Assembly (NCBI GenBank): GCA_036679645.1
Contig: JAZDCY010000035.1
Span: 32,001 to 96,000 of the forward strand
Length of the DNA stretch: 64,000 bases
Reading direction: 5' to 3'
Source: Gemmatimonadota bacterium
GTDB lineage: Bacteria; Gemmatimonadota; Gemmatimonadetes; Gemmatimonadales; GWC2-71-9
The position numbers were made by a program, and so were the translations under genes. Each line of letters begins with the position of its first letter. Positions within the stretch are counted from its first letter, which is position 1. The notes under the pieces are model-generated. The model had not been told where the DNA came from, ran no database searches, and saw only the letters and a program-made list of their open reading frames with translations. Shown here piece by piece: positions 32,216 through 63,921 of the stretch.

Positions 32216-32234
32216 AGGTCGTCCTAGACCCCGC

Positions 32235-33464: not shown

Positions 33465-34129
33465 GTGCCGCTCCGCCGCGCAACCACCCATCCGGCAAAC
33501 CGTCCGTCGAGTAACGACACGCGCACACCCGCGTCGGCGAGGTAGCGACGTACCGTGACCACGGCGCGGATCTCGGCCGGCGACGGATAGCTGCGGACCA
33601 CGACTCGCTGCGCTGCCACGTTCAACGTCACTGCGTCTTCACCCCCATATGCGAGGTCCACCGACTGATACAACAATGTATCTGCCGCACGCACCGCACA
33701 GAGCGTCCCCAGCACCGCGCGATCGGCCCGCCGCGCTACGGGCAGATCGAGGCCACCCCGCGTCGGGTCATACGGGAGCGGCCGGGCGTTGCAATCGAGC
33801 GCGACCATCCCCTCCGGACCGGACACGAACGCCACCGGCGAGCGTTCCACCACCCGAACCCGGAGCGTGGCCGGCAGCCGCCGGTCCACCTCCGCTCGTA
33901 ACACGCCCGGCAGACGTTCCAGTCGCTGCCTGAGCGGCCGCACCCGGTCGAAGACGTTCTGTGACGCCTTCAGGTCCAGTGCGGCGAGCACCCGCTCGGG
34001 GGCAAGGTACCGCACGCCCACCAACTCGACCTGCCGCACACGAAAGAACGGTACCCAACGGAGACTCACCACCCCAGCCACGATCACCATTGCCGTGGAG
34101 CCGCCGATCAGCAGCGCGCGTCGAGTCAT
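33461..34129 (-). CDS. ftsQ: Cell division protein FtsQ/DivIB
   Basis: TM followed by a POTRA-like domain (RRLPATLRVRVVERSP). Located just upstream of ftsA. Confidence 0.85.
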   Translation of the reverse strand: MTRRALLIGGSTAMVIVAGVVSLRWVPFFRVRQVELVGVRYLAPERVLAALDLKASQNVFDRVRPLRQRLERLPGVLRAEVDRRLPATLRVRVVERSPVAFVSGPEGMVALDCNARPLPYDPTRGGLDLPVARRADRAVLGTLCAVRAADTLLYQSVDLAYGGEDAVTLNVAAQRVVVRSYPSPAEIRAVVTVRRYLADAGVRVSLLDGRFAGWVVARRSGT

Positions 34130-35505: not shown

Positions 35506-35560
35506 TGGTTGGGCAGCTAATATAGTGTCAACTCGAAATTTACGAAAGACTTACGGCCCC

Positions 35561-44962: not shown

Positions 44963-44966
44963 GGGG

Positions 44967-45254
44967 TCAGCGTGTATCGGGCACGGGCACCTGCAGAATG
45001 ATGATCTCCGAGTCGTCGGGCAAGCGGAGTCCCAGGGATTCCGCCCGGGGCACGAGCACCGAGAGACCGGTGGCTTCCCGAATTCGCCGTTGGAGTGCCG
45101 ATTTCTCCGCTTCTGCAGCCGATCGATCTGACCGCATCTCCCGTAATTTCGCTGCGAGCACAACGCTCGCGGTCTGTCGCGTCGTGACCCATGCCAGAAC
45201 TCCCAGCAGGAACACGAGCCAGAGCACGAACATGTGCCTTCCTCTAGCCGCCAT
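44967..45254 (-). CDS. ftsL: FtsL-like cell division protein
   Basis: Short TM plus coiled coil, positioned between rsmH and ftsI. Confidence 0.7.
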   Translation of the reverse strand: MAARGRHMFVLWLVFLLGVLAWVTTRQTASVVLAAKLREMRSDRSAAEAEKSALQRRIREATGLSVLVPRAESLGLRLPDDSEIIILQVPVPDTR

Positions 45255-46159
45255 TATTCGTGCTCGAACACACGCAGTCGGGCGCTGCGCGCCCGTGGGT
45301 TGTCTGCCACCTCGGCGTCATCCGCCATGATTGGTCTTCGCGTCACGAGCCGACCTAGGGCGTGTCCTCGGCATCGACAGACCGGAAACTCCGGGGGGCA
45401 GACGCATGTACGGCACCATTCGCGAAAGGTGTGCTTCACGATTCGATCCTCGCCCGAATGATACGCGATCACCGCCAGCAACCCCGCCGGACGCAGGGCA
45501 TCCCGGAGCAGGGGTAATCCCCGCTCCAACTCCTCGAGCTCGCGATTGACCGCTATGCGCACTGCCTGAAACAGTCGCGCGAAGTCTCCGGGCCCCGACC
45601 GCGGTCCCAGCACCTGCCGGATGGCGTTCACGAGGTCGTCACTGATGGTGAACGCGTGCCGGGCCCGGCGGGCCACGATCGCCCGAGCCAACGGCCGTGC
45701 CCGCCGTTCGTCCGCATGTGTCCGGAACAGAATGGCTAGGTCCTGCTCGGACATCTCGTTGAGGAGATCCGCTGCCGAGGGTCCCTTCCCGGACATACGC
45801 ATGTCCAGCACGACGCCGGGTCGGAACGAGAACCCGCGGACATCGCAATCGATTTGGTGGGAGGAGACCCCGAGATCGAGCAATATGAAGTCGGGACCGA
45901 ACCGGGCGATAGCGGCGAGGATCTCCGGGGCCGCAAAGCAGCCACTGACCCATGTGGCGCCTTCGGTGGCTAGCCGCGCCCGCGCAGCCGTCACCGCCTC
46001 GGGATCCCGGTCGATGGCGAGCACTTCGGCACCGGCATTCCGGAGAATGGCGGTGTGGCCACCGCCCCCGGCGGTCCCGTCCACGGCGCGCCGCCGGCCC
46101 CGAGCGAGCCGGGCGATCTGCTGGGCAAGAACTGGGGTGTGAAAATCGGCGCGCGTCAT
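45254..46159 (-). CDS. rsmH: 16S rRNA m4C1402 methyltransferase
   Basis: HTPVL, GGGGH, DLGVSS, LDMRM, FQAVRIAVNREL, NPRARSARLR. Start at MTRADF. Confidence 0.96.
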   Translation of the reverse strand: MTRADFHTPVLAQQIARLARGRRRAVDGTAGGGGHTAILRNAGAEVLAIDRDPEAVTAARARLATEGATWVSGCFAAPEILAAIARFGPDFILLDLGVSSHQIDCDVRGFSFRPGVVLDMRMSGKGPSAADLLNEMSEQDLAILFRTHADERRARPLARAIVARRARHAFTISDDLVNAIRQVLGPRSGPGDFARLFQAVRIAVNRELEELERGLPLLRDALRPAGLLAVIAYHSGEDRIVKHTFREWCRTCVCPPEFPVCRCRGHALGRLVTRRPIMADDAEVADNPRARSARLRVFEHE

Positions 46160-46319
46160 GGGGAATCGAGGTAGCGGCGGACGATCCGGAGCACCCTCCC
46201 ATCGCCTATCCGGTTCTGCAGCTTTCCCACTGAGCGCCACCATGACGTTCTCGCGCGCAACCACCTGCTCCATCAGCGGGGGATTCCCAACCCCAAGTCA
46301 CCATCCATGCTGGGCACAC
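46160..46319 (-). mobile_element. Heavily deleted group IIC intron relic
   Basis: GTGTGCCCAGCATGG begins directly after a terminator U-tract. RT-like fragments MEQVVARENVMVAL and VGKLQNRIGDGRVLRIVRRYLDS follow in different frames. Confidence 0.75.
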
Positions 46320-48687: not shown

Positions 48688-49682
48688 GCATCGGTACTTG
48701 GGGCGTCTGGGGGGAGGACCCAGCCGTCGTCCAGTCGTGCCCGCCGGAGCTGATCGTCGCGTCGGCGACGCCACCACAACAGGCCCACCAGAACCACGGT
48801 CACGGACCAGAACACGGCAAACGACGTGAATATCTGGAGCCACCCGTAGCGGCTGCGAAGCTCACGCTGCCACAGCCCTTCGAATTGCGCCAGCGAGACC
48901 AGGTGCGTGCGCCGGACCGCCAAATCGAAACTCCGCACATCCCGCAGGTTCTCGAGGAACGGGGCGAGCCCTCGCTCGCCGCCGATCCGCTCCAGGAATA
49001 GAACCGCCGCCGTAGAGAGCGCATAGGCAGCGTGTGCGTGCGCGGGCCCCGAGCGCAGCTCCCGGTTCAACCGGGCAAACGACGGAATATTCCCTTTGGC
49101 CAGTGTCCAATTGACACCGAGCGCGTCGAGCCGACCCCACTCGGCTGCCGCGCGCGCCGCGTACCCCTCGTCGAACCAGAGCGGAATCTGCGCCCTCGTG
49201 GCGCGATGTAGCGCCAGGTGCGCCAACTCGTGCCGCAGCGTGGTCAGGGGATCGCCGGACACCCGAAGCACGATCGAGCCCGATCGGGGAAACGCCGCCG
49301 CGGCACTCCACGGCGGAAGACGGTGCGCGGTTACCGAGTCAAAACGCTCGCGCGATCGTGTCACCACCAGCCGGATCGGTAACGAGTCCACGCCGGGGAG
49401 ACCGGGCCACCGCGCCGGTCGATCTGCAAGCTCGGCCAGAGCGGTGGCGAGTGCAGCATCACCCGCCCAGTAAACGGCGACCACCCGCCCGACGCGCACC
49501 GTCTCCGGCACCTGGGCCGGCAGCGCTACGGGTACGAGGGCCGCTAGGAGCGCGGCGGCTCTTCCCCCTGGGCCACGAGATCGAGCGTCTCTTTGCAGCG
49601 TTTCCCCCAGGGATTGAACTTGTTGGCCGCGAATCCCTTCTCCCAGGTCTCGTTGGCGCCCTCTCGATCGCCGGAGTACCAA
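48684..49682 (-). CDS. Peptidase MA-like zinc metalloprotease with a C-terminal TM (true start probably near 49550-49610)
   Basis: HELAH followed by WFDEG, signal-like segment, C-terminal TM then RRRR. Confidence 0.75.
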   Translation of the reverse strand: MVLRRSRGRQRDLGEGIRGQQVQSLGETLQRDARSRGPGGRAAALLAALVPVALPAQVPETVRVGRVVAVYWAGDAALATALAELADRPARWPGLPGVDSLPIRLVVTRSRERFDSVTAHRLPPWSAAAAFPRSGSIVLRVSGDPLTTLRHELAHLALHRATRAQIPLWFDEGYAARAAAEWGRLDALGVNWTLAKGNIPSFARLNRELRSGPAHAHAAYALSTAAVLFLERIGGERGLAPFLENLRDVRSFDLAVRRTHLVSLAQFEGLWQRELRSRYGWLQIFTSFAVFWSVTVVLVGLLWWRRRRDDQLRRARLDDGWVLPPDAPSTDA

Positions 49683-50404
49683 TGGGCCCGGCCTAGCTCG
49701 TAGTATGCCTCGATGAGATTCGGCCCCAGCGCAATTGTCTTCTGAAAAAAAGTCAGCGCGTCTTCGAACATCTCGCGCTCGAGGTAGACGAGCCCAAGAT
49801 AGTAGTGCGCGTAGAGGGTCGCCTTCTTGTCGTTGTCCAGCCGAATCGCCTTGGATAGGTGCTCGATCGCCTCACCGAAGATGCGCTTCTTGAGACAGAT
49901 GAACCCAACGTTGATGCGGGCCAGCGAGTTGGCCGGCTCCTTCATGAGCACTTTCTGGAAGGTGGCGAGCGCGTCGTCGAAGTCCTCGTGCTTCATCTGC
50001 GCCCACCCAAGCAACGACTCCGCCTGCGCATCTCCCGGCGAGTATTGCAACGCCTTGGTGAGCGCCTGAATGGCACCCTCGTAATCGCCCAGGGAAATCA
50101 GGTTCCACCCTTTCTCGATGAGCGTCGAAGCATCGATGTGACTGACGTGCATCGCCGGAATCTGGCCAGTGAACTGCGGTACCTGGTCGCTCGAGTCGCC
50201 CTGCTGCAGCTGTTTGTACCGGTCAACTAGCACGCGGATGTCTTCCTTCAAAGCCGTCAGATCGGTGATACCCTGATCGACAGCCTTGAACAACGCGATG
50301 ATCTCCCGCTTGACCCCCTCCCGCTGCTCACCAGACGACGCCTCGTCGAGGCGCTGCTGAATCGAGATGTAGCTCGCGCGAAGTGGGGTAACGATCTCAC
50401 TCAT
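49544..50404 (-). CDS. TPR protein with an N-terminal coiled coil
   Basis: About five canonical TPR repeats after a heptad-rich N-terminus. Confidence 0.85.
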   Translation of the reverse strand: MSEIVTPLRASYISIQQRLDEASSGEQREGVKREIIALFKAVDQGITDLTALKEDIRVLVDRYKQLQQGDSSDQVPQFTGQIPAMHVSHIDASTLIEKGWNLISLGDYEGAIQALTKALQYSPGDAQAESLLGWAQMKHEDFDDALATFQKVLMKEPANSLARINVGFICLKKRIFGEAIEHLSKAIRLDNDKKATLYAHYYLGLVYLEREMFEDALTFFQKTIALGPNLIEAYYELGRAHWYSGDREGANETWEKGFAANKFNPWGKRCKETLDLVAQGEEPPRS

Positions 50405-50879
50405 GACCCGCCTCCACCGTCAGGGCCGCGAGAGCGACCTGTTCGTCGGACGACAGGAGCCGTGACACCGCCAGAATCACAATCGTCCTCCCGGCGATCG
50501 TCACCATCCCATTGATGAACTGTGCCGCCAACCCTCGCACCAGATCGGGCGGCAACGTAATCTCCTCCGCCCGCACCTTGCGTACTTCGATGACCTGATC
50601 CACCACCACCCCAATCCGCGTGCTCTCCAGCTCCAGCACGATGACCCGCGTCTCATCACGCACCGTCGCCGGCGCCGTAAGCCGTTTCCGCAGGTCAACG
50701 AGTGGAATGGTGCTGTCGCCATACGAGAACACGCCCTCGAGAAACGCGGGCGCCTTCGGTAACGGCGTGGGTTCACGATAGCGGACGATCCGTTCCGCTT
50801 CGAAGACGCTCACCGCAAAACGCTGCGCGCCGACCCGGAACACGACCAACTGAACGTCGTCGCCCTGTTGTTCAGGCAT
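50397..50879 (-). CDS. cheW: CheW adaptor
   Basis: QLVVFRVG, PLPKAPAFLEG, IPLVDLRKRL, IGVVVDQV. Confidence 0.9.
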   Translation of the reverse strand: MPEQQGDDVQLVVFRVGAQRFAVSVFEAERIVRYREPTPLPKAPAFLEGVFSYGDSTIPLVDLRKRLTAPATVRDETRVIVLELESTRIGVVVDQVIEVRKVRAEEITLPPDLVRGLAAQFINGMVTIAGRTIVILAVSRLLSSDEQVALAALTVEAGHE

Positions 50880-51303
50880 CGGCCACCGCCTGTCGCTCGA
50901 GTTCGAGCTGATCAATCACCGCTGCGACATCCACCACGGGGATCATTGCCCCCTCATACCGCGTGACGCCGGCGGCCCATGGCATTTCCCACACCGCCGG
51001 AACGGGCTCGGGCGCGTCCGGCAGCAGGTCCGCCGCCTCGTCGACCTCGAGCGCCAACCGCCGCTCAGCTGCCGCAACGAGCACTGCCGTGTAAGACGTG
51101 GCACTCGGCGCCGGTCCGTGCGTGAGCACCGCCCCGAGATGCACGACGGGCACCAGATCCCCACTGATGCGCATCACACCGCGAACGGCGGCGCACGCCA
51201 CGGGCACTGCTAGGACCTGGCCGATCGGCACGATCTGCTCTACGTGCTCGACGGCGAGCGCGTAATGCCGCTCTCCGACCCGGACGAGCAGACAGCCACT
51301 CAC
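50872..51303 (-). CDS. cheW: CheW adaptor (divergent)
   Basis: [36 protein letters not shown]. Confidence 0.85.
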
Positions 51304-52373
51304 TCAGCACTCCGTAGCTCGAGCTCGGCGTGCACCTGCGGTCCGATTTCCCGCAGGGGAACAACGCGGCCCACACCGCCTCGCTGGACCGCCGCCTGTG
51401 GCATCCCGAAGATCACGGCGGTCTCCTCATCCTGCGCTAGGCCGATGCCTCCCGCGTCGTGAATCGCTCGCAGTCCCTCCGCTCCATCCCGTCCCATACC
51501 TGTCAGCACGACCCCGATCGCTCGCGGACCAAAGGCACGCGCAACGGAGCGAAACAACGGATCCGCCGCAGGACGCACACCCCACACGGCGGGCCCCTCA
51601 TCGAGACGCAGGAGTGGTTCTCCAGCGACCCTATCGACGAGCAAATGATAACCGCCCGGGGCGACGTACGCCGTGTCGGCCAGGAACGGAATGCCGTCGT
51701 CGGCCTCGACCACGCGAAACGCGCTACCCTGATCCAGGCGCTCGGCCAGACTCCGCGTGAACTTCGGCGGCATGTGCTGCACGATGACCGCGCCCGCGCC
51801 GAGCCCAGGTTGAAACGCCGGAACCACCTCGGCGAGCGCCCGTGGGCCACCCGTACTTGCCGCAATCGCGACCGCGAGCGTCGCCCGGCCCTGGATGGCA
51901 TACTCGGGACGCCGGGCCGGTGGTGCTGGCGCCGCGCGCGCTAGCATGGGTACGCGCGAAAGATTGGCCGCGACCGCCGCGTCCAGCGCCGCGATCAGCG
52001 GCGGACCGATCTGCTCGGCGGCAGCCCGTGTATGCACTTCAGGCTTCGCAACGATTTCCACCGCGCCCAGTTCGAGCGCCCGGATCGCGGCCGCGGTGCC
52101 CGGCCCTGCATAGGCACTCACCACGACGACCGGCCGCGGTGACTCGCTCATGATGTACCCGATCGCGCCGAGGCCATCGAGTTCAGGCATCTCGATATCC
52201 ATCGTCACGACATCGGGAGTATGTAGATGCACCTTCGCGACCGCGTCCATACCATCGCGCGCGGTCCCGACGACGCGGAAGCGCCCGGACGCATTGATGA
52301 CGTCGCACAACACGCGCCGCATGAGCGCGCTGTCGTCCGCAACGAGCACAGTGCGAGGGCGCTCAGAGTTCAC
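51300..52373 (-). CDS. cheB: Receiver-methylesterase CheB
   Basis: REC domain (DDSALMR, DIEMP, KP) and esterase motifs [18 protein letters not shown]. Confidence 0.96.
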
Positions 52374-52854
52374 GCGGCGTATTCCCCACCGACCAAACGA
52401 CGAGCGTCCCCGCCCCAACATCGAAGCGCAGTGACCGGCCGCGCTCGCCGCCCAACGCCTCCCCGATGACCGGTACATCCGCTTCATCGAGGGCACGGCG
52501 ACAGGCGACGGCGTTTCGCTCACCAATATGCTCCACGCCGGGCGCCATCAGCGCTGCGAACATGCGCGCGCCACCGACCAATCGCGCTGTGAGACGCTCG
52601 TACACACCGCCTTCGCGCTCCATCTCGCCGATCAGATGCGGTACGGCGGTCTCGGCGAACCGCGCCGGATTAGACCGATCGCGGGCAAACTCGGTGGATG
52701 GCAGCACAACATGCACCACGCCGCCAACACGCGCGTCGGGATCGTGCAGCACCACCGCAACGCAGCTCCCCAACCCGTGGACGGCAATCGTCCGATCCGC
52801 ACCGACAACCGCTACCCGCCCGAGGCCGACCGGCACTTCACCCCGGTGCTTCAC
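52363..52854 (-). CDS. cheD: Chemoreceptor glutamine deamidase CheD
   Basis: [30 protein letters not shown]. Confidence 0.93.
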
Positions 52855-53666
52855 GACGCCCGCCGGTAAATTCGCTCGCGCGCGTTGTCCAGCACGAGCC
52901 GGTCGCGCGCTTCGCCGAACAGCGTTTCGACCTTCCCGAGCACCAGAATCCCGCCGGGCGCGAGCGCTTCGGTAAACGCCAGGAACAACCGTTCCTGAGT
53001 CGTACGGTCGAAGTAGATCACTACGTTGCGACACAGGATCAGATCGTACGGCGGATGGGGCGGCGGTTCGCGCAGCAGGTCGTGCCGCCGGAACCGGACG
53101 AGCGTACGGACCCCGGCGGCAATCCGCCGGGGTGTGGAGTCGCTGAAATGCCGCTCCAACAGTGACGGCGGGAGCTCGTCGAAAGCGCTCTCGGGATACG
53201 ACCCTGTCTCGGCCCGTGCCAGACTCGCTCGGTCGAAGTCCGTCGCGTCAACGAATGCCGGAATGGAGGTCGACCAGCCGACCTCGCGCGCCTGCTCCAG
53301 CAGCACCATGGAGAGTGTGTATGGCTCCTCACCGGAGGCGCAACCCGCCGACCAGCAGCGGACGGCGCCCTGCCGGATGCGCCAGAGATGTGGGACGTGA
53401 TGCGCGCGGAGCGCGTCCCACGTATCGTGGTTTCGATAGAACTTGCTGACGTTGATCGTGAGCGTGTCGAGCAAGCGCTCGTATTCCGTGTCATCCTGCG
53501 CGAGCAAGCGCGCGTAGTCGTCATACGTATGAACGTTCCGAGCGCGCATCCGGACGGCAAGACGGCGCCGCAGGCAGCTCTCCTTGTACGCGTCGCATCC
53601 GAATCCGCGAGCCCGCGCGACCTGCTCCAGCAGCGCCGCAAGGGCGGGATCCCCTGCCTCGGTCAC
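52851..53666 (-). CDS. cheR: Chemotaxis methyltransferase CheR
   Basis: TINVSKFYR, WSAGCASGEEPY, DLILCRNVVIYF. Confidence 0.96.
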   Translation of the reverse strand: MTEAGDPALAALLEQVARARGFGCDAYKESCLRRRLAVRMRARNVHTYDDYARLLAQDDTEYERLLDTLTINVSKFYRNHDTWDALRAHHVPHLWRIRQGAVRCWSAGCASGEEPYTLSMVLLEQAREVGWSTSIPAFVDATDFDRASLARAETGSYPESAFDELPPSLLERHFSDSTPRRIAAGVRTLVRFRRHDLLREPPPHPPYDLILCRNVVIYFDRTTQERLFLAFTEALAPGGILVLGKVETLFGEARDRLVLDNARERIYRRAS

Positions 53667-55282
53667 GCCAGGGCGCTCAGCGTTTCGAGGTTGGTCCGCA
53701 CGAGTTCGTGGCCCGGGTTCAGGTCGAGCGCCTGTCTCCAGCACGCGCTGGCCTGCTCGCGGTCGCCGCGCTTGTACGCGATGTTGCCCAACTTGAAGTA
53801 GAGATCGTCACCGAGCTGCGGGTCGAGCTTGATGGCGCGCTGGTACGCGGTCGCCGCATCATCGTATCGGGCCGCGCGATACAGGATATCCCCCAAGTTC
53901 TTCGATAGCTGCGGCACGGACGGCTCATCGGCCAGGGCGCCACGCAGGAGATCCTCTGCTTCATCAACGGAACCGAGCAACTCGATGAGTGCGGCAAGAT
54001 TGTTGGCGAGGACGGCGCTCTTGGGATGACGCTCCAGGCCCTCGCGCAGCACCGATTCCGCCTCGTCGAACGCTTCCTGCCCGGCCGCTGCGAGGCCACG
54101 CGCCCAGTACCACAGGGGAGGGAGGGGCGCATCGCCCGCAACCTCTGCCGCCCGGTCGAGCCGACCCTCCGCCACCTGGTACTCCCCGCGCTGGAGCGCC
54201 GAGATGCCCCACCCCGTCATGATGCGGGCGTCGTAACGGGCGCGACCCGCCGCATCGCCGTAGGCCGAATCCGCGTGGTCGAGCTGGCCCAGCTGCTCGT
54301 ACGCCAGGGCGAGATTGTGCAGCACCGCGGGCCGGGCACCCAGGTGCTCGGCCGCATTGCGGAAAAAACCCGTGGCATCCCGCCACCGCGCCTGCCTCAA
54401 CGCTACGAGCCCGAGAAAGAAGTGCGCCTCACCATCTGCCGGTCGGAGCTCTACCACACGGCGAAACTCGCGCGCCGCCTCGTCGAGCATTCCCGTCCTG
54501 TAGAAGGCGATACCCAAGTTGCGGTGCTCCTGCACACGACCCTCATTGACCTCCGCCACCGCGGGCGCCTGACTGCGCCCCACCCGATGGGCGAACCCGG
54601 CGGAGATCAGGCCGTACAACGCCTTCCCAACGTCGAACTCGACGAGCCCTGAGTCCTCGATGACGCAGGCGACGTCCCGTTCGCCGTCGAACAACGGCAG
54701 GATCTGCCGCTGCTGGTCGGTCAGCTCCACGTCCGAGGCCTCGAGACGCCCGCCGTCCACGCTGAAGATCAGATCGAAGGACGGGACTTTCTTCTCGATG
54801 AGGCTCCACTCATCGACGCGGCGCGCTCCTTCGAGCAGAAGCGACTCCGGCTTGATGGAGACGACGAACTCCTCGCGTTCCGGCCGTACCTCGCTCTCGA
54901 AGTTGAACGTTCCCTGCGTCCAGGTGAAGAGATAGTAGACCGCCTCCTGGATCTGGACGCGCATGTTGCCCTCGAGATCGTCACGACTTAGGAGCCCGAG
55001 ATCCACGAGGATCTGGCCGAGTCGCTTGTCGCGCTCTTCCGACTGCTTCTCGATGGCCTCGCTCAGCTGATCCTGCGTGATCTTCCCTGCCTTGACGAGC
55101 ATGTCGCCCAACCGGTCGCGCCGGTTGACGATCGAGGCGTAGGAGATCTGTCCCCGGTCGAAGTAGATGTAGCCGAAGTTGGAGCGGTCGGCGATTGACA
55201 GGCACCCGGTCTTCTGCCCCAGCGCGAGCAACTGCAACACATCGGGGAGTGACGCCTCTTTGAGGCTGCCTTTGATCGCCAT
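53663..55282 (-). CDS. DUF4388-like + MshEN-like + TPR protein
   Basis: GSLKEASLPDVLQLLA..KTG, GTFNF, LLLEGARRVDEW, tandem RLG motifs, multiple C-terminal TPRs. Confidence 0.85.
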   Translation of the reverse strand: MAIKGSLKEASLPDVLQLLALGQKTGCLSIADRSNFGYIYFDRGQISYASIVNRRDRLGDMLVKAGKITQDQLSEAIEKQSEERDKRLGQILVDLGLLSRDDLEGNMRVQIQEAVYYLFTWTQGTFNFESEVRPEREEFVVSIKPESLLLEGARRVDEWSLIEKKVPSFDLIFSVDGGRLEASDVELTDQQRQILPLFDGERDVACVIEDSGLVEFDVGKALYGLISAGFAHRVGRSQAPAVAEVNEGRVQEHRNLGIAFYRTGMLDEAAREFRRVVELRPADGEAHFFLGLVALRQARWRDATGFFRNAAEHLGARPAVLHNLALAYEQLGQLDHADSAYGDAAGRARYDARIMTGWGISALQRGEYQVAEGRLDRAAEVAGDAPLPPLWYWARGLAAAGQEAFDEAESVLREGLERHPKSAVLANNLAALIELLGSVDEAEDLLRGALADEPSVPQLSKNLGDILYRAARYDDAATAYQRAIKLDPQLGDDLYFKLGNIAYKRGDREQASACWRQALDLNPGHELVRTNLETLSALA

Positions 55283-55283
55283 A

Positions 55284-57251
55284 CTAGACGAGTTCCTCGA
55301 TGATCCGGTCGTTCGTGTCGGGCCAGCGCCAGATCACCTTTTCCCGACTGCGCACACCGCCGGCTGGCGAGACGACGATCCCGCTAGTTCGCATGCGGAA
55401 CGACGAGCGCCGCGGCCGAGCACCGCCATCGAGCAGATCGCGCGCGAAGGGGACTGTCAGCACTGCATCGCGGGTCTCCGCGGCATCTACCACGCGCTGC
55501 ACCGTGCCGATCACCGTTCGCAGACTCTCGGCATTGCGGTCGGCAAGAAACGCGGCAAGATCCGGATCCGACGTGCCGGTGCGCGTCTCGAGCTCGCGGA
55601 CGACCAGGGAATACCGCAGGTCTCGATCTGGTGGGTCGATCTCGGCCACGAGCCCGCCCTCCATACGTGAGATGAGGCGTTCGTGGACGCCGTCCAACTC
55701 GCGCGGCGCCACGTTGACCGTGAAGACGACCTGTCGTTCCTGATCGACGAGCGCATTGAACAGGTGGAACAACTCCTCTTGGGACCGCTCCTTCCCCGCG
55801 AGGAGATGGACATCATCGAGCAGGAGGGCCGTCGCGCGGCGATACCGGGACCGCCACGCATCGACACGGTCCATCTCGATCGCCTGGACCAACTCGTCTA
55901 TGAAATCCTGCGCGGAGAGACAGGCGACCAGTGCGTCGGGCGCTGCCGATAGGGCGTGGCCCACCGCATGGAGCAGGTGCGTCTTGCCAACGCCAGTGGG
56001 GCCGGCCAGCACCAGTGGGTTGTACGTCGTCGCCGGGTGCTCCGCCACGGCACGCGCGGAGGTCAGCGCCAGCTGGTTGGACTCGGCGTCCACGAAATCG
56101 TCGAAGGCCCATGCTGCAGAAGGCCCCGGCGGTGGTGCAAGACCGTCCCGGGCCCGGCTCACGAGCTCCTCCGCGGCCGGCACTTGATCGGGATCGTGAA
56201 ACACGGCGTCACCGGCGCGCGCGGCATCGAGCGTCGTCATCTCACGCTCCAACGCCTGCAGCCGCTCAACATCCGCCCCATATTCCCGCAACACTGCGTC
56301 CGCGCCCACGGGCGTATCCTGCTCGAGCAACGTGACAATCCGCGCGGTCCGGTAGCCCTGACCTTCCCAGAACACGACGGCTTCGTGCAGTCGCTGCCGC
56401 CACGCGTCCATCTGCTTGGCGAGCGCACTTCCAACCGACGAGAGGAATTGATCGAACTCGTTACCGGCGACCACGCCCTCGCTTGCAGCCGCCGCCAGCT
56501 CGGCTGCTGCGTCATCTACCTCCCCAACCGACTCGCCGATCCCCAGCAGCGTACGCACACCGTCCGCCGTAATGGCGCCTTCGTTGACGGCCTGAAACGC
56601 GATGAGGCGGTTGAGCAATCCAATCAGCTCCCGTACGTTCCGCGCGTCGACCTCGGCGATCGCCTCGAGCACCGCCCGCTCGAAATCCACGCCACGCTCG
56701 TCAGCCTTCCTGCGCAAGATGGCGAGGCGCGTCTCGAACTCCGGCGTACCGATATCCACGACCAACCCGCCCGCAAACCGCGAGATGAGCCGCTCGTCCA
56801 GATTCTCGATCTCGTTTGGGGGACGGTCGCTCGAGAGGACGATCTGTTTGCCACCCTCGAGAAACGCCGTGATGAAACGCAACAGCTCCGACTGGGTCTC
56901 CAGCCGGCTTGCGAGGAAGTGGACATCATCGATGAGCACCACGTCGACACCCGTGAAACGATTGCGGAACGCCTCGCTCTGTCCGGCCGCGACGGCTGCA
57001 TGAAACGACTCGACGAATTCCTCGAGCGTGAGGTACTCAACCGACAGCGCCGGACTCACTTCCTTGGCGAGACGCCCGATAGCCATCATCAAATGCGTCT
57101 TCCCCAGACCCGACGCCGAGTAGATGAACAGGGGGTTGTACGCAGTACCCGGACTCTCGGCAACCGTCCGCGCCGCAGCGACGGCGAGCCGGTTGCTGGG
57201 GCCGACCACGAACGCGTCGAAGGAATACCGCGGGTTGAGATCGACGGTCAC
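55284..57251 (-). CDS. Tandem DnaA-type AAA+ protein without a DNA-binding domain
   Basis: Two copies of the DnaA domain III motif set: F..FV...N, YNPL, GxGKTHL, DDVH, RLISR. Confidence 0.88.
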
Positions 57252-57847
57252 TGCGGCGGCTCCTCACTGAGCTTACGGAGGACGCTCTCCGAGATTGCCT
57301 TCAGAGTCTCGAACACGCCCGTTCCCGACACCGCCGCGGCGGGAACACTCGGCACGCTTCGGAAGTTGAGTTGGTCGTCCAGCTCATCGACGGTGAGTAT
57401 CAGGTCGCGCGGAAGATCCTGCTTGTTGTACTGCAGAACGAGCGGAACGGTCCGAACATCGATACCCTGTTCCAGCAGGTTGTGCTGGAGGTTTTGCAAG
57501 CTCGTGATGTTCTCGTCGAGCTGGCGGGCCTGACTGTCCCCGACGAAGACGACGCCGTCCGCACCCTGTAGCACGAGTTTGCGAGTCGCGTTGTAATACA
57601 CTTGTCCCGGTACCGTATAGAGCTGGAAACGCGTCGTGAAACCTGAGATCGTTCCTAACTCGATGGGCAGGAAATCGAAAAACAGTGTCCGATCCGTATG
57701 GGTCGCGAGCGACACCATGCGACCACGACGCTCCTCAGGTACGCGCTGATAGACGTACTGCAAGTTGGTCGTCTTGCCGGATCGCCCGGGACCGTAGTAG
57801 ACGATCTTGCACGTGATCTCGCGGGTCGTGAAATTGACGAGCGACAT
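57248..57847 (-). CDS. mglA: MglA-family small GTPase
   Basis: [41 protein letters not shown]. Confidence 0.96.
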
Positions 57848-57852
57848 GAGAT

Positions 57853-58320
57853 TTACCGAAAAAGGGTCGCGAGGCTCTCGTTGAGATCCCGCTCGAAGTC
57901 GGCAGCGAGTACGGCGCGGTGCTCTGGGGGCGGCGGCGCTGCCGCCCGCAGTTCCTCCACCAGTTCCTCGAAGAATAACTGCACCAGCCCAACGGACGAT
58001 TCCGCGCCGTAGACCACGAGCACTAGCATCTGGCCGCGCACGCTGTCGAATCCCGAGAGGAAGATGCCGTGTGACTCACCCTTCTGGTTCAGCGCGCTGA
58101 ACGGGGCCTGCTCCAGCATCCGCGCCAACTCACTGGTCGACGCTATGATCCCCGCCCCCAGTGCCGCCGCAGCCATGACATCCACGGCCCTCGCAAAGCC
58201 ATGCTGCGCGATCACCTGCCCCGACGGCGTCATCACGAGCGTAAGACGGGCCCCGGCCTCGACCACAAACCGTTCCAGCGGCTCGAGGACCCATGGCTCG
58301 ATCGCGCGGGTGGACTTCAT
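57853..58320 (-). CDS. mglB: MglB-like roadblock protein
   Basis: Roadblock pattern ([28 protein letters not shown]) immediately upstream of mglA. Confidence 0.8.
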
Positions 58321-58667
58321 CCCATCTTCTCCACCGCCCGCAGCATTTCCAGCCGCGCGAGCCCGACATTCACATCCGCCCCGCCGACGCAGACGAGAAG
58401 TGTCACTTCGGGTCCGGGCACCGCCAGCAGCACACCATGATCGGCCTGAAGGTGGAGGAACTGCGGTGCGCCTATTCCGCTCGAGGCTGATGCCAGCGAA
58501 AGCCGATTCGCCAGCGACGCCGCCAACGCGGCCATCGCGTTGCCACGCACGCCTTCCATCAGCGCGTCCGCCACTACGAGACCGTCGTCCAGGGACACGA
58601 GCATCGCCCCCTGCAACCCCCGTACGCGGGTAACGCCATCGAGTGCTCGCCCGATCCGCGACGTCAT
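58317..58667 (-). CDS. Roadblock/LC7 protein
   Basis: GLQGAMLVSLDDGLVV...NVGLARLEM. Confidence 0.85.
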   Translation of the reverse strand: MTSRIGRALDGVTRVRGLQGAMLVSLDDGLVVADALMEGVRGNAMAALAASLANRLSLASASSGIGAPQFLHLQADHGVLLAVPGPEVTLLVCVGGADVNVGLARLEMLRAVEKMG

Positions 58668-59473
58668 CGCTCCTCCGCCTGCAACCAGGTGCGCGCCGCA
58701 GCGGCCGCACGCTGTGCGAGGAGAGCAACCCGCCCGGGCGGAACCGCCCGGTCTCGCTTGATCAACAGGAAGGTCCCCTGGCGTGGCTGGGATACGTGTA
58801 GATGGCCGTCCGGGGCCTCCACCGCGATGGCACGCCACACCCCCAATTCGAGCAGGCGCGCCGCCCGTTCCGCTTCCTGCGCCGCCCCGGCAAGATACGC
58901 GGCCACCTCGGCCGCCACATCCTCACCGGATGCGTTTCGCACCCCACCCCCCAACACGCGACCTTGCCCATCGACGAGCAGAATGCCTTCCTCGGCGCCG
59001 TCGAATCCGGCGAACACGTCGGCCCGGATCTCCCCTGATGCCCGAGCTGCCGTGATGTCTGCTTCTGACGGCTCGGCGGCCGCACGCACTGTGCGGAGCG
59101 CCTGCACGACTGATTCGTCGGTAGGATCGGTCGCGAGGGCCGTCTCTAGATGGTCCAGGGCGCTGTCCAACTCATCGAGACGGTAGAGCAGGAACCCCAT
59201 CCCCTTGTGAGCGCCGACGTGCCGCTCTTCCAACTGCAGCGCTCGCTCCCACTCCTCATGAGCCGCGTCGAAGTTCCCCGCATCCACGAACACCCGAGCG
59301 AGCAAGTCGTGAGCATCCGCGTGATCGGAATGCCGCTCGCACCCGGCCATGGCCACCTTCACCGCCGCGTCCAAGTTACCCAACACCCTCAGCGCCTCTC
59401 CCAACTGGAGGAAGACGAGGCTGTCGGGATCGCGCGCCATCTCGGCCGTCATCGCCTTGATGTCAGCGACCAT
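58664..59473 (-). CDS. TPR-roadblock fusion protein
   Basis: About three TPRs followed by a roadblock-like domain (ILLVDGQGRVL...PPGRV). Confidence 0.75.
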   Translation of the reverse strand: MVADIKAMTAEMARDPDSLVFLQLGEALRVLGNLDAAVKVAMAGCERHSDHADAHDLLARVFVDAGNFDAAHEEWERALQLEERHVGAHKGMGFLLYRLDELDSALDHLETALATDPTDESVVQALRTVRAAAEPSEADITAARASGEIRADVFAGFDGAEEGILLVDGQGRVLGGGVRNASGEDVAAEVAAYLAGAAQEAERAARLLELGVWRAIAVEAPDGHLHVSQPRQGTFLLIKRDRAVPPGRVALLAQRAAAAARTWLQAEER

Positions 59474-60611
59474 TGCCCCCTCGTATGACTCCATCGAGCG
59501 TGCGCGCTGCTTCGATCGCCGCCTCGACATCCTCGCGCTCCGTCGCGAGCGTGTCATCATGGCGTGCTATCGACAACCACCGCTCCCACCACTCGACCGC
59601 ATCGTGGAACTTCCCTTGGAGCGCGAGTGCATTGCCCAACGCCTGGTGCGCCAGCGCAAGCATCGGATCGAGCCCAAGCGCCTGGCGCGCCGCCCGTTCC
59701 GCATCGCCGGCGCAGTCTCGAGCGAGCGAAACCTGCGCCGCCGCGAGATGCGCTTCGGCATCGGTCGGGTACGCGGCGACGAGCGCCTCGACCTCGACAC
59801 GCGCGCTCTCGACGTCGCCGTCCGCCAGGAATCCGTCTACGCTGGCAAGGGTCCCGGACAGATCGTCTGCATCGCTGGACGACTCCCGCACCGGATCGCG
59901 CACTTGCACGATTCCAGCGCTCTGCAAGCCAAAGACCGTGCGCGCCACCTCGAATTCGGACCGGCCCAACGTTCCCGCAATCAGGCGCAGATCCACCGTC
60001 CCGTCGATCATCGCGAGCACTTCCCACTCGGTGGCCAGGAGATCGAGTTCTCCCTCCTCGGTGCCTTCCGCCAACACCAACGACGGGACCACGCCCAAGT
60101 GCGGGATCTGCCGCTCGATGCGCGACCATTCGTCGATCCGCCGAGCGCCCTCCATCATCAGGGCCTCAGTCGGGATCCGCACGAGCGCCTCTGCCGGCAC
60201 CTCGCCAATCGGGCCTTCGTTGAACGAAAAGTAGCCCTCGCGCCAATTCATGACCTCGAAGATCACCTCCTCGACTTGGAGATGGACCATTCGTTCGAGT
60301 TCTCGCTGGCTGATGGCATCGATCGCCACCAGGATCTCACCCAGCCGGCGTTCGTCGCCCCGTCGCTGCGTCTCCTGCGCGAGATTGAGCTCGGCCTCCG
60401 TAATTTTGCCGGCTCGCAACAACAACTCGCCCAGCCGATGGGGGTTGCTGCGGACTTCCGCAGCGATCACGCCGCCTTTCTCGAAATGGATTGTGCCGTG
60501 ATTGCGTCGCAGCTGCGACGTCACGCGCAAAACACCGGTCTTGCGTGAGAGATCGAGCAACTGGAAGACATCATGGATGCCGAGTTCGCGAAGGGGGCCT
60601 TCGATCGCCAC
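59463..60611 (-). CDS. DUF4388-like + MshEN-like + TPR protein
   Basis: EGPLRELGIHDVFQLL..KTG, WREGYFSF, LMMEGARRIDEW, tandem RLG motifs, TPRs. GTG start at 60611. Confidence 0.85.
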   Translation of the reverse strand: MAIEGPLRELGIHDVFQLLDLSRKTGVLRVTSQLRRNHGTIHFEKGGVIAAEVRSNPHRLGELLLRAGKITEAELNLAQETQRRGDERRLGEILVAIDAISQRELERMVHLQVEEVIFEVMNWREGYFSFNEGPIGEVPAEALVRIPTEALMMEGARRIDEWSRIERQIPHLGVVPSLVLAEGTEEGELDLLATEWEVLAMIDGTVDLRLIAGTLGRSEFEVARTVFGLQSAGIVQVRDPVRESSSDADDLSGTLASVDGFLADGDVESARVEVEALVAAYPTDAEAHLAAAQVSLARDCAGDAERAARQALGLDPMLALAHQALGNALALQGKFHDAVEWWERWLSIARHDDTLATEREDVEAAIEAARTLDGVIRGGNGR

Positions 60612-60612
60612 G

Positions 60613-63297
60613 TCAGGCCGCCTCGGTGCGGAAGATGTGCTGGAGATCGAGCGCCGTGCGTGCGTGCTTGCGCGCCTTCTGCGCATACGGACCAGCAGGA
60701 TCTAGCTGCACGACCTGCTCCCACGCGTGCACCGCGTCGGGGTACCGGCGCAACCGCGCCAGCGCGACCCCGCGGAAGAAACGCGCGGCGACGTGATCGG
60801 GATCGAACGCCGTCACCCGGTCGAACGCCTCGAGGGCTCGATCCAGGCGGCCGTCGTCCACGAGAGCCTGCGCGAGGGCCATCACCGCTTCGAGATCGCC
60901 GGGGTCGTCGTGAAGGAGATCGACCAGCAGGTTGATGGCCTCTCGCGCCCGCGCCGTCTGCCGGAAGACGCGGGACAGCGGGACCGCGGCTTCGGAGTAG
61001 GTCGGCAGCACGTCAAGCGCCGCCCGATACGTCGTCTCGGCGGCCGCCCAGTCCTCTCTCTCTTCATGCACGTGCCCCAGAGCAACGTGCGCCTGCACGA
61101 ATCGCGCGTCGAGTTCTAGCGCGGACTCGTAGGCGGCGCGGGCGGCGTCCAAGTCGCCGGTTCCCGCCGCGATGTCTCCTTCGAGCTTGCGAATGTCTGC
61201 GCGTTGCGGTGCACGAGCACGCGCCAGTTTCACCGCATCCAGCGCGCCAGCCGGATCATGGTCGGCGCGGCGCGCTTCGGCAACTGCAAGGAGCACATCG
61301 AGATGTTCCGGCAATTCCGCTGCCAGGCGTTCGGCGTCATCCCGCGCCCCCCGCGCTTGTCCCAACGACACCCGGGCGCGCACCTCGCCGAGCCGGGCGT
61401 CGATCCGATCGGGGGCTCGCTCCCGCGCGGCGCGGAACCTCTCGAGCGCCTCACCGTGCAGGCCGCGGCGCCGAAAGATCTCGCCGGCGAGCACCAGCGC
61501 TTCCACCTCGTCGGCGCCGCGCGATACTGCGCGGCCGGCTTCGGCGGCCGCCAACTCGAAGAGCCCCTTCGAGAGATAGTCCCGCGCGAGGGACAGTGGG
61601 TCGGTAGGCTCGGGATCCGCCCGCTTAGACGGACGGTCGAGCTCCTGGAAGATCTGGTCGAGAACCCCCTGATCGAAATGGAGGCTCTGGGGCGCGATCT
61701 CCGTACTCACGTCCGCGGAGATCTCGGGCACGATCGAGATGGTCGGGTCCTCGTACTGGAGATCGATGGCCAGACGGAACTTCTGCGGCACGTAATAGGG
61801 GTCAAGCGTCTGGGCGCGGGTCACCGCACGCAACGCACCGTCATAGTCACCCATCGCTGAGAGCGCAAAGCTCAAGTTGTAGTGCGCTTCTGCTGACTCG
61901 GGGTCGTTCTCGACTGCCCGGGCAAAAGCGTTGCGCGCGTCCTCCGTCCGCTGCAACTCGTTCAGCACGAGACCGATCCCATTCCAGGCGGGCGCGGACG
62001 CCGCGTTGAGATCGAGCACCTGCCGGTACGCCTGTAGGGCCAGCTGATAGCGGCCCAGGCGGGCGAGCAGCAGCCCGAGGTTCAAGCGAGGGACCTCCAG
62101 GGCTTCGCCGGAACGCATCGCATCGTGGAACTCCTCGATCGCATCTTCGTGACTGGACTGATGGGCCAAGCTGACCGCGAGATTGTTGCGCGCGATGGCG
62201 TAATCTGATGCGATCTCGACCGCGCGGCTGTAGGACGCGACCGCGTCCTCGGATTGCCCTAGCTGGTGCAGCACGACCCCACGCTCGTTCCAGAGCTTTG
62301 GGGAGTCCGGCACCTCACGCGTCAGCGTATCGTAGAGCTCGAGCGATGCCGCGTAGTCCCGTCGCAGCAGGTGGACTTCCGCCATCGCCTGCAGCACCCG
62401 GAGGCGCTCTTCGCCCTCATCGAGACCGATGCGATACTCGCGCAGCGCCTCGTTGTAGTACCCCTTCTGCCGAAATGCCAGCCCGAGATTGAAGTGGGCA
62501 AACGATCTCCCCTCTGCCGACTCGAGGGTCGCATCGTCGGGGATCCGAATGGGCTGCGACTTCCGGTCTCCGATATAGCGTTCGAGGGAGAGGTTGGTTT
62601 GCGCGCGCGCAAATGTCGGGTTGAGTCGAATGGCTCTCTTCGTTGCCTCGCGTGCCTCTTCATGCCGCCGAAGGTCGCCGTAGACGAACGCGATCAGGTA
62701 ATGCGCGTCCGCGTTCTCCGGGTTCAGCTGCACCGCGCGGGAAAGCGCGGTCAGGGCGTCGGCGTTGAGACCGCGATTGTAGAGCACCTCGCCCAGGTAG
62801 AAATGGACAACGCTGCTGTCGTGATCGAGATCTGCCGCGCGCACAAACCACTCCGTCGCCTCTTCCAGGCGACCGCGGGTTTTTTCCGCCAGTCCCAGCT
62901 GAATGAGAGCCGCCAGATCGCCGGGGTCGCGGGACACGATCTCCTCGAACTCCTGCACCGCGGCATCGGACTGCCCCAACGACGCATACGCCCGTCCCAA
63001 CTCCCAGCGGGCCTCGCGGTCTGCGGGCGTGACCCGCAAGCGCTCGTGGAGGGTCGTGACCCGCTCGTCGTAGTGCCCGGTCTGCTTGTAGGCGATTTCC
63101 AGATTCCGCTGAGCGACGAGCATCTTCGGATCCAACTCGAGCGCCCGCACGAAACACTGGATCGCCTCGTCGGCAAGGCCCTTTTGATAGAAGAGCACAC
63201 CCAGATTGTTGTGCGCCCCCGAATCCGACTGGTCGATGCGGCGGGCGAAGGAACGCAGGACCTGGCGGTCGCGCTCCGAGAGGACCAGAGGGGCCAT
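60613..63297 (-). CDS. Large cytoplasmic TPR protein
   Basis: Many TPR repeats (AHNNLG, AHFNLG, AWNGIG, AHYNL) in several blocks and no signal peptide. Confidence 0.9.
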   Translation of the reverse strand: MAPLVLSERDRQVLRSFARRIDQSDSGAHNNLGVLFYQKGLADEAIQCFVRALELDPKMLVAQRNLEIAYKQTGHYDERVTTLHERLRVTPADREARWELGRAYASLGQSDAAVQEFEEIVSRDPGDLAALIQLGLAEKTRGRLEEATEWFVRAADLDHDSSVVHFYLGEVLYNRGLNADALTALSRAVQLNPENADAHYLIAFVYGDLRRHEEAREATKRAIRLNPTFARAQTNLSLERYIGDRKSQPIRIPDDATLESAEGRSFAHFNLGLAFRQKGYYNEALREYRIGLDEGEERLRVLQAMAEVHLLRRDYAASLELYDTLTREVPDSPKLWNERGVVLHQLGQSEDAVASYSRAVEIASDYAIARNNLAVSLAHQSSHEDAIEEFHDAMRSGEALEVPRLNLGLLLARLGRYQLALQAYRQVLDLNAASAPAWNGIGLVLNELQRTEDARNAFARAVENDPESAEAHYNLSFALSAMGDYDGALRAVTRAQTLDPYYVPQKFRLAIDLQYEDPTISIVPEISADVSTEIAPQSLHFDQGVLDQIFQELDRPSKRADPEPTDPLSLARDYLSKGLFELAAAEAGRAVSRGADEVEALVLAGEIFRRRGLHGEALERFRAARERAPDRIDARLGEVRARVSLGQARGARDDAERLAAELPEHLDVLLAVAEARRADHDPAGALDAVKLARARAPQRADIRKLEGDIAAGTGDLDAARAAYESALELDARFVQAHVALGHVHEEREDWAAAETTYRAALDVLPTYSEAAVPLSRVFRQTARAREAINLLVDLLHDDPGDLEAVMALAQALVDDGRLDRALEAFDRVTAFDPDHVAARFFRGVALARLRRYPDAVHAWEQVVQLDPAGPYAQKARKHARTALDLQHIFRTEAA

Positions 63298-63300
63298 GCG

Positions 63301-63921
63301 TCAGGTAATGCGGACGGCGTCGAAGATGGCCTTAAGGGACGCGAGGTCAGGGAGCAAGAGAAAGTGACCGTTCAACGCCCGGCCGGCTTCGACGAAATGA
63401 AAGTCGGTTTCGACGCAGAACACGAAATCACGATCTTGACCGAAGTTGAGATACGCCGTCGTGACGACGGCGCCCGCGAGGTCTACCACCAGACTGGGCA
63501 CCGAGGGCAAGAGCATCATACCCATGAAATCGGACAGCGCGTTCATGTATGCGCCACCGAGTATGTTCCCCGCCTCCTTGAGGCTCGACTGCTCCAGCTC
63601 GTCAAACCTGTCCGTCGAGCCTGGCGTCCGCTTCAACAGAAGATCACAGAGAAGCTTGGCGTTCTCTTCCGGCACGAGAAAGAGCGTCCGACCAGTGAGA
63701 TCGCCGAGCATGTGCATGAGCACGGCCGCGACCACTTCATCCGGATCCCCGATCGTCTCGGGCACGTCCTCCAGGCGCGTGATCGTGATCTCCGGCACGT
63801 TGATCATGATCCGCCGATCGGTCATCTGCGAAAGCGCCGTCGCCGCATGCCCCGCGCCGATGTTGGCCACTTCCTTCAGGGCATCGAGCTGTAACGCTTT
63901 CAGATCGCGAATGTCTTCCAT
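63301..63921 (-). CDS. cheC: CheC phosphatase
   Basis: Two ExxN motifs (DALKEVANIGAGHAATALSQM and SSLKEAGNIL), plus PSVP. Confidence 0.95.
   Translation of the reverse strand: MEDIRDLKALQLDALKEVANIGAGHAATALSQMTDRRIMINVPEITITRLEDVPETIGDPDEVVAAVLMHMLGDLTGRTLFLVPEENAKLLCDLLLKRTPGSTDRFDELEQSSLKEAGNILGGAYMNALSDFMGMMLLPSVPSLVVDLAGAVVTTAYLNFGQDRDFVFCVETDFHFVEAGRALNGHFLLLPDLASLKAIFDAVRIT

Follow-up and report, generated by a model that had tools for sequence, protein, structure and literature searches.

The window analysed here is a stretch of 64,000 nucleotides (nt) from a Gemmatimonadota bacterium (assembly GCA_036679645.1, contig JAZDCY010000035.1, positions 32,001 to 96,000). At 55284..57251 on its minus strand lies an open reading frame (ORF) of 655 amino acids (aa) with a GTG start, whose product (P0001; the ATPase in what follows) contains two DnaA-type AAA+ modules in one chain: two stretches match the family PF00308, without PF08299 or PF11638. 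To our knowledge, modules of this type are known only from the initiation of replication and its control, that is, from DnaA and Hda. The ATPase is a conserved but dispensable accessory of a module of MglA, Roadblock, PATAN-TPR and Che proteins. As judged from its sequence, it is a DnaA-derived, non-replicative and probably active enzyme. The reading that we favour, with slightly better than even confidence, is that it serves as an ATP-driven switch or adaptor in this polarity module, and that a predicted contact of its helical domain and C-terminal tail holds it on a PATAN-TPR protein.

Domain architecture, ATP sites and ancestry

The anatomy of the ATPase was drawn from a 45-member alignment and an AlphaFold2 model of the full chain (mean predicted local distance difference test (pLDDT) 84.7; predicted template modelling score (pTM) 0.47). 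In order from the N-terminus, its parts are:

56544..57242, minus strand: module 1, AAA+ core and lid (residues 4-236); sequence match to the DnaA chains 8bv3 and 8btg (E about 1e-61), Foldseek match to 8bv3_A
56463..56537, minus strand: disordered, poorly conserved spacer (residues 239-263); pLDDT <50, gappy columns in the 45-member alignment
56142..56462, minus strand: conserved three-helix inter-module domain (residues about 264-370), followed by PPPGPS; two alignments and the model
55425..56117, minus strand: module 2, AAA+ core and lid (residues 379-609); Pfam, NCBIfam, structure-sequence matches and residue census
55287..55358, minus strand: C-terminal tail motif SREKxxWxWPxxxxRxxEEL (residues 632-655); census of 189 members, kept in all three single-module variants

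In a Pfam scan, PF00308 (Bac_DnaA) matches in two stretches (E 1.8e-107), with no match to Bac_DnaA_C (PF08299) at E<=0.01 and none to DnaA_N (PF11638, domain I); module 1 begins at residue 4. The first-pass annotation, made from the letters of the window, had described just this architecture, two DnaA modules without domain I or domain IV, and had predicted the outcome of such a scan; the motifs that it quoted are all found in the protein. It had also named three findings that would speak against its description, namely a domain IV, an artefactual duplication, and homologs that are always split and unlinked to mglA. All three were looked for and none was found.

The best Foldseek match of the full model is domain III of DnaA (8bv3_A; template modelling score (TM) 0.93 on the target, root-mean-square deviation (rmsd) 1.7 Å, 233 columns), and the part that superposes is module 1. 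The only solved structures with a sequence match to module 2 are Hda chains. Between the modules, a helical linker of about 140 aa had been proposed; its helical part stands, and the remainder has to be redrawn as the disordered spacer, the folded and conserved three-helix domain, and the PPPGPS stretch listed above. The three-helix domain carries the motifs DEFxxFL, WRxR and WEGEGYRT, and is predicted to fold on its own (pLDDT 89). It has no Pfam match at E<=10, no Foldseek match in the PDB at E<=0.001 and no usable match in the ESM Atlas; its best fold match by VIA-align is an EzrA repeat (Z 6.5, rmsd 3.4 Å over 111 residues), which lies in the common range for helical bundles and is not significant. 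Neither this domain nor the C-terminal motif (EKxxWxWP...RxxEE) matches a known family. The tail motif, which the earlier description had lacked, is separated from module 2 by a disordered stretch (residues 611-635). In a census of 189 full-length family members, E637 is kept in 180, K638 in 179 and W643 in 184. Three single-module variants (L116, which is P0122 with 392 aa; L138 with 407 aa; and L141) retain module 1, the helical domain and the tail motif. Module 2 is therefore facultative, and the helical domain and tail belong to the core of the protein.

Both modules have the sequence features expected of a catalytically competent AAA+ protein: a Walker A lysine, a Walker B acidic pair, an arginine finger acting in trans and a sensor II arginine. 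Their retention in both modules had been noted before, and is borne out by alignment with E. coli DnaA and Hda. The predicted ATP site of module 1 is made up of K51, D108/D109, the sensor I residue D142, R154, the arginine finger R158 and the sensor II residue R207; that of module 2 comprises K423, D479/D480, R525, the arginine finger R529 and the sensor II residue R578. In E. coli DnaA numbering, K178 corresponds to K51 and K423, R285 to R158 and R529, and R334 to R207 and R578; the box VII arginines are R154/R158 in module 1 and R525/R529 in module 2. As already observed, module 1 has Ser in place of the first Walker A glycine, as do 145/189 members. Within module 1, K51 and D108 are each present in 189/189, D109 in 187/189 and R207 in 182/189; its arginine finger R158 occurs in just 102/189 (Gly in 43, Gln in 27). 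In module 2, K423 is kept in 178/189, D479 in 181/189 and the finger R529 in 182/189. The best-kept pair is thus the ATP pocket of module 1 and the finger of module 2, a pattern that fits an internal head-to-tail pair with one main catalytic site.

The phylogeny of each module, which the first-pass annotation had recommended, was obtained by maximum likelihood (quick IQ-TREE method, 102 rows). A whole-protein search for related loci had returned one true relative (L005) and 79 canonical dnaA loci of other phyla; the 39 DnaA rows from other phyla in the tree are a biased sample left over from that search. Module 1 forms one clade and module 2 another (99 each in the approximate likelihood-ratio test, SH-aLRT), and both lie outside the group that unites all 50 canonical DnaA rows, 11 of them from Gemmatimonadota (support 94). 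Both clades persist when 11 long-branch rows are dropped and E. coli DnaA and Hda are added; the single Hda, on a very long branch, stands apart from module 2. Branching inside each clade largely tracks the families of the genomes. It follows that the fusion is old and that the modules did not arise by recent copying of the host dnaA. Module 1 is 44-48% identical to domain III of Gemmatimonadota DnaA. Chance, a recent duplication and an assembly artefact are rejected, with the two modules only 34-38% identical to each other and the architecture recurring in more than 100 independent assemblies. The module 1 clade also includes longer forms (P0184, P0205 and P0210) and P0214 (738 aa), which has two modules and a C-terminal response-regulator receiver domain.

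Homologs of about 640-700 aa number in the hundreds, intact and with conserved catalytic residues, linker and tail. Every named homolog looked up is from Gemmatimonadota (10 clusters examined in one look-up, 6 with names), and the family appears old and confined to this phylum. Its distribution was assessed in 201 genomes of the phylum, four of which (G057, G097, G157, G182) are unpublished; no conclusion rests on these four. Genomes were counted as carriers when their best match was stronger than E 1e-70, a threshold set by reading the table, in which genomes with dnaA only give about 1e-45 to 1e-65. By this threshold 132/201 genomes carry the ATPase, and two more with verified single-module forms (G084, G106) bring the total to 134/201. 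The carriers include 94/96 genomes of the source genome's own family, 26/38 and 3/3 in families f2 and f3 of the same order, and members of certain other families of the class. Matches of ATPase strength were not found in family f6 (0/11) or families f9-f12 (0/21), and in family f7 only 2/23 genomes have one.

A canonical dnaA exists elsewhere in the source genome (G000; 92.67% complete), as the first-pass annotation had advised confirming. Its product of 483 aa has DnaA_N, Bac_DnaA and Bac_DnaA_C, and the gene lies beside dnaN on another contig (C4). The genome has only three PF00308 matches, namely the two modules and this canonical gene, and the single PF08299 match is on the same contig C4. 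The ATPase gene, in turn, is not linked to dnaN or the origin region and sits between mglA and a PATAN-TPR gene; the reported absence of dnaN holds for the whole window. Several sources, annotation pipelines among them, nonetheless name homologs of the ATPase 'chromosomal replication initiator protein DnaA', because the NCBIfam model TIGR00362 matches twice, each time only over profile positions 103-335, and the two half-matches sum to 506.8 bits, above the cut-off of 343.9. This is an annotation trap: a spurious second 'dnaA' in Gemmatimonadota genomes can mislead origin prediction and gene counts. Models of IstB/DnaC-type helicase loaders do not reach their cut-offs (NF038214, 99.9 vs 200; the DnaC and DnaI models far below).

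Gene context and PATAN-TPR as candidate partner

The ATPase gene is consistently found with mglA, Roadblock, PATAN-TPR and che genes, which makes its product a component of an MglA-associated polarity and chemosensory cluster; judged by gene context, it is tied most tightly to the PATAN-TPR protein encoded downstream rather than to MglA. All genes of the cluster lie on the minus strand, in the order cheW, cheY, cheA, cheC, TPR (894 aa), PATAN-TPR (407 aa), TPR-Roadblock, Roadblock, MglB-like Roadblock, mglA, ATPase, PATAN-TPR (539 aa), cheR, cheD, cheB, cheW, cheW and TPR (286 aa). The genes around the ATPase are:

57248..57847, minus strand: mglA of the cluster type, a small Ras-like GTPase; its stop overlaps the ATPase start (GTGA), directly upstream in 29/31 loci
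53663..55282, minus strand: PATAN-TPR protein, 539 aa; MshE-related cyclic di-GMP (c-di-GMP) motif at residues 57-104, candidate docking partner, adjoins the ATPase in 31/31 loci
57853..58320, minus strand: MglB-like Roadblock/LC7 gene, 155 aa; Robl_LC7 match, start at an internal ATG of a long ORF to which homologs align only from about residue 137
58317..58667, minus strand: second Roadblock/LC7 gene, 116 aa; domain match
58664..59560, minus strand: TPR and Roadblock fusion protein; domain match, synteny
59463..60686, minus strand: PATAN (DUF4388)-TPR protein, 407 aa; domain match, synteny
60613..63297, minus strand: large TPR protein, 894 aa; domain match, synteny
63301..63921, minus strand: CheC; domain match, with cheA, cheY and cheW beyond the window edge
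50397..53744, minus strand: cheR, cheD, cheB (receiver and methylesterase) and two cheW genes; domain matches, synteny
49544..50404, minus strand: TPR protein, 286 aa, the last conserved gene of the cluster; domain match, synteny

The overlap with the mglA stop had been pointed out earlier and is confirmed; GAGGAG lies 9 nt upstream. At the other end, a single nt separates the stop codon TAG of the ATPase gene from the ATG of its downstream neighbour.

Synteny was compared in 31 loci from 31 other genomes, picked for an ATPase match (one, L102 from G097, is unpublished). The gene for the 539-aa PATAN-TPR protein is directly downstream of the ATPase in all 31 and mglA directly upstream in 29; of the 20 loci that extend far enough, 18 also have che genes downstream. 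In the two exceptions (L100, L101) the ATPase and PATAN-TPR genes form a pair beside ileS and divIVA, with neither mglA nor che genes, and the nucleotide site of module 2 is degenerate. Conversely, in four genomes (L136, L137, L139, L140) mglA is followed directly by the PATAN-TPR gene, with no ATPase between. The PATAN-TPR protein is ranked as the tightest partner because of the 31/31 adjacency, the two loci with the pair and without mglA or che, and the four that have mglA and PATAN-TPR without the ATPase.

These arrangements bear on what we regard as the strongest alternative, albeit an unlikely one: that the ATPase is a direct effector or regulator of MglA, binding MglA-GTP or acting on its nucleotide cycle, with MglA as its main partner. 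Such a role would agree with the upstream position of mglA and the GTGA overlap, and with the specialised nature of the neighbouring MglA, which is a second paralog, the classic mglB-mglA pair being encoded elsewhere in the genome. It fits poorly with an ATPase and PATAN-TPR pair that does without a nearby mglA in two loci and with a cluster-type mglA that does without the ATPase in four; moreover, no known MglA-binding fold (TPR, Roadblock or receiver) was found in the ATPase. The first-pass annotation had offered 'scaffold ATPase or MglA effector' as one of two readings. A non-replicative scaffold or switch ATPase in the MglA cluster is upheld, and MglA as the closest partner gives way to PATAN-TPR. 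Most genomes of the family have two MglA paralogs; in the source genome the second is encoded by a classic pair of Roadblock (165 aa) and MglA-like (224 aa) genes next to recR on contig C22 (L146, C22:22946-26389).

The favoured reading, with the ATPase held on the PATAN-TPR protein, draws further on the way in which the two proteins vary together. At E<=1e-60, matches to the 539-aa PATAN-TPR protein occur in 144/201 genomes, including all 134 ATPase carriers (by reading of the table). In family f7 only two genomes (G116, G159) have such a match, and these are the same two that carry the ATPase. Residues 57-104 of the PATAN-TPR protein form an insertion in the PATAN domain that matches NCBIfam NF053729, an MshE-related c-di-GMP-binding motif (55.6 bits vs a cut-off of 38); two RLGxxLV-type repeats are visible in its alignment. 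Where the ATPase is missing, the PATAN-TPR protein is shortened at its C-terminus by 55-75 residues, the final TPR pair (4/4 loci), and in 3/4 the insertion with the c-di-GMP motif (residues about 55-108) is also gone. All 12 ATPase-linked orthologs compared keep both the final TPR pair and the insertion.

As for the wider surroundings, the MglA/PATAN/Che cluster is wedged on one strand between ileS/divIVA (divIVA at L117:9525-10292) and the dcw genes for cell division and the cell wall (mraW ... ftsA, ftsZ; window positions 31064-46273). In one genome (G159) a reduced ATPase and PATAN-TPR pair lies directly beside ileS and divIVA. Farther away, two ORFs of the window with high third-position GC, 27277-29097 (minus strand, 606 aa) and 19318-20253 (minus strand, 311 aa), have no Pfam match at E<=1e-5.

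Proposed mode of action and competing explanations

In the mechanism that we propose, the tail and the helical domain would dock the ATPase onto the PATAN-TPR protein; TPR grooves bind ligands of this kind, that is, acidic, Trp-rich C-terminal tails. The two modules would pack head to tail, R529 of module 2 completing the ATP site of module 1 to give one main catalytic site, and the site of module 2 would mostly bind nucleotide, often without a partner finger. The ATP/ADP state may then alter the conformation or self-association of the ATPase, and hence the availability or activity of PATAN-TPR. Cyclic di-GMP probably enters via the PATAN insertion, and the output of the pathway is probably type IV pilus polarity. 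A pilus output is proposed because the genome encodes PilB/PilT-type ATPases and gives no match to FliG, because PATAN binds the pilus motor in cyanobacteria, and because MglA acts via a TPR effector in Myxococcus. The source genome has eight PilB/PilT-family matches, including an adjacent pair. PilB1 and PilC of Synechocystis are bound by a PATAN domain (bioRxiv 10.1101/2021.06.11.447907). In Myxococcus, PilB is brought to the pole by the TPR protein SgmX, which MglA recruits, and PATAN proteins are among the candidate SgmX partners (PMC11580455). A flagellar output was considered and dropped, FliG_C having no match in the source genome at its completeness of 92.67%.

Several points weigh against this reading, or limit it. 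The role assigned to the ATPase is an accessory one because the cluster functions without it in some genomes. The four ATPase-less loci all belong to family f2 and perhaps go back to a single loss, so that the co-variation of ATPase and PATAN-TPR, which bears on the predicted docking, may be one event. The relative orientation of the modules is uncertain (pTM 0.47), the suggested pairing of the module 1 site with the module 2 finger being read from conservation, and the pilus output is argued indirectly. No gene for a methyl-accepting chemotaxis protein is present in the cluster; the source genome has three, all elsewhere. Module 2 keeps residues with which DnaA binds single-stranded DNA, and a pure protein-switch model leaves that unexplained. 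Lastly, the cluster adjoins the dcw division genes and is near divIVA, which leaves room for a role in the cell cycle.

Replication provides the next alternative. The ATPase might be an Hda-like regulator that caps or co-assembles with DnaA-ATP filaments and so ties polarity or division signals to initiation; we consider this less likely still than a direct action on MglA. The case for it draws on several of the features described above: the similarity of module 1 to host DnaA domain III, the near-invariant arginine finger of module 2 (R529) together with its counterparts of V211 and R245 of E. coli DnaA, the place of the cluster beside dcw and near divIVA, and the Hda model TIGR03420, which the whole protein passes by a narrow margin (195.7 bits vs a cut-off of 194.8). 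It is countered by the lack of a clamp-binding motif: no QL[SD]LF-type sequence precedes either module when aligned to E. coli Hda, and a loose pattern is found in only 3/189 members. Furthermore, the ATPase gene is never adjacent to dnaA or dnaN in the loci examined, both modules fall outside the DnaA clade with E. coli Hda apart from module 2, many relatives that keep dnaA have lost the gene or have none that was found, and its occurrence follows PATAN-TPR. For the related proposal of the first-pass annotation, that the protein co-polymerises with true DnaA and so links signalling to initiation, no positive evidence was obtained; the motif count, the absence of linkage to dnaA, dnaN or the origin, the position of the modules in the tree, and repeated loss or absence in relatives with dnaA all tell against it.

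The ATPase might also bind nucleic acid or the nucleoid in an ATP-dependent manner and thereby place a chemosensory or polarity complex in the cell. ParA-like proteins are encoded in some che operons, and the idea is modelled on these; we regard it as improbable. In E. coli DnaA, V211 and R245 serve in binding single-stranded DNA. Their equivalents in module 2 are V455 and R489, with Val or Ile in 164/189 members at the first position and Arg in 136/189 at the second, so that the hydrophobic and the basic residue are both retained, and the gene is part of a che cluster. At the same positions, however, module 1 has His (142/189) and Glu (164/189); there is no duplex-DNA-binding domain, and the single-module forms exist without module 2 altogether.

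That the gene is a decaying duplicate or an assembly artefact without function has next to no probability: frameshift-like breaks in two genomes and a degenerate module 2 in one lineage are outweighed by the hundreds of homologs that are intact and keep the catalytic residues, linker and tail, and by the branching of each module's clade, which largely follows genome families. Naturally split genes were considered as well: in two few-contig assemblies, the ATPase gene (L108 in G127, 6823-8819; L109 in G198, 6965-8943) is interrupted within the disordered spacer, which may reflect decay or sequencing error. The PATAN-TPR gene of the first of these genomes (G127) also carries an internal deletion.

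Relation to known systems

If the favoured reading is true, this large, conserved family would be a plain example of an initiator ATPase put to use in signalling, with its module doubled, its DNA-recognition domains gone and its gene in an MglA/PATAN/Che cluster. MglA-type polarity systems, otherwise described as driven by a GTPase, would also gain an ATPase component.

A distant parallel is offered by the type II AAA+ proteins such as p97/Cdc48, which likewise have two AAA+ modules per polypeptide and give weak whole-chain fold matches (TM 0.24-0.30). They belong to another AAA+ clade (about 14-16% identity) and form hexameric rings; the resemblance is limited to having two modules.

Hda (TIGR03420; structures 3bos and 3sc3) is closer: it too has a DnaA-type module, lacks domain IV and depends on an arginine finger (in the ATPase R529, 182/189). 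Hda, however, consists of one AAA+ module (about 230 aa) preceded by a clamp-binding motif, whereas the ATPase has two modules in 655 aa and no such motif; the gene contexts differ too. A derivation of module 2 from Hda was considered and set aside: E. coli Hda, the one Hda sequence in the tree and on a very long branch, does not group with module 2.

With DnaA itself (PF00308, TIGR00362; structures 8bv3, 8btg, 2z4r and 2hcb), both modules share the AAA+ core and lid, and the Walker A and B motifs, sensor I (in module 1 only), the box VII arginines and the sensor II arginine align residue for residue. Unlike DnaA, the ATPase lacks domains I, II and IV, has two modules per chain, and has acquired an additional helical domain and a tail motif. 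Its gene is not beside dnaN, its modules lie outside the canonical clade, and module 1 has lost the basic residue of the R245 type.

A counterpart with the same kinds of parts is the MglA network of Myxococcus xanthus (SgmX, FrzS, SopA, Frz), in which MglA, a Roadblock-type partner, TPR effectors, PATAN proteins and a Che-like system control pilus polarity; in the available part of the two sources (PMC11580455, PMC4316618), it differs in that no AAA+ or DnaA-like component is described. PMC4316618 places some mglA genes near PATAN genes and Group 1 MglA in Gemmatimonadetes; the words 'DnaA' and 'replication' occur in it 0 times. A literature search, with subscription journals outside its coverage, found no description of the ATPase, nor of any DnaA-type ATPase in an MglA, PATAN or MshEN context.

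Among proteins built from DnaA-type modules, further parallels are fusions from outside the module 1, module 2 and DnaA clades. Five proteins join such modules to MshEN domains, which are c-di-GMP receptors (P0146, P0179, P0255, P0270, P0271), and two to TPR arrays (P0209, P0228). They are 750-1990 aa long; in P0146 and P0179, about 1400 residues lie between two such modules. The family of P0271 has 305 matches at E<=1e-40; its named members are all from Candidatus Hydrogenedentes and are labelled 'DnaA/Hda family' or 'DnaA'. In the 201 Gemmatimonadota genomes, a search at E<=1e-80, run with a stricter initial filter, found no such fusions. In these proteins, too, a DnaA-type module without domain IV is combined with the domain types that neighbour the ATPase, a c-di-GMP motif and TPRs; unlike the ATPase, they have modules from other clades, and the combination is made by fusion and not by adjacent genes. 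A broader scheme can be sketched from this, speculative and clearly less probable than the switch proposed above. In two phyla or more, the ATP-dependent assembly engine of DnaA may have been turned to signalling, in association with c-di-GMP receptors and TPR scaffolds; its Gemmatimonadota form might act as a self-contained two-module timer on PATAN-TPR that sets how long an MglA-defined pole and its pili are active, and it may couple polarity to the cell cycle, the cluster being beside division genes. The MshEN and TPR fusions of other organisms suggest that the reuse of this module extends more widely than Gemmatimonadota.

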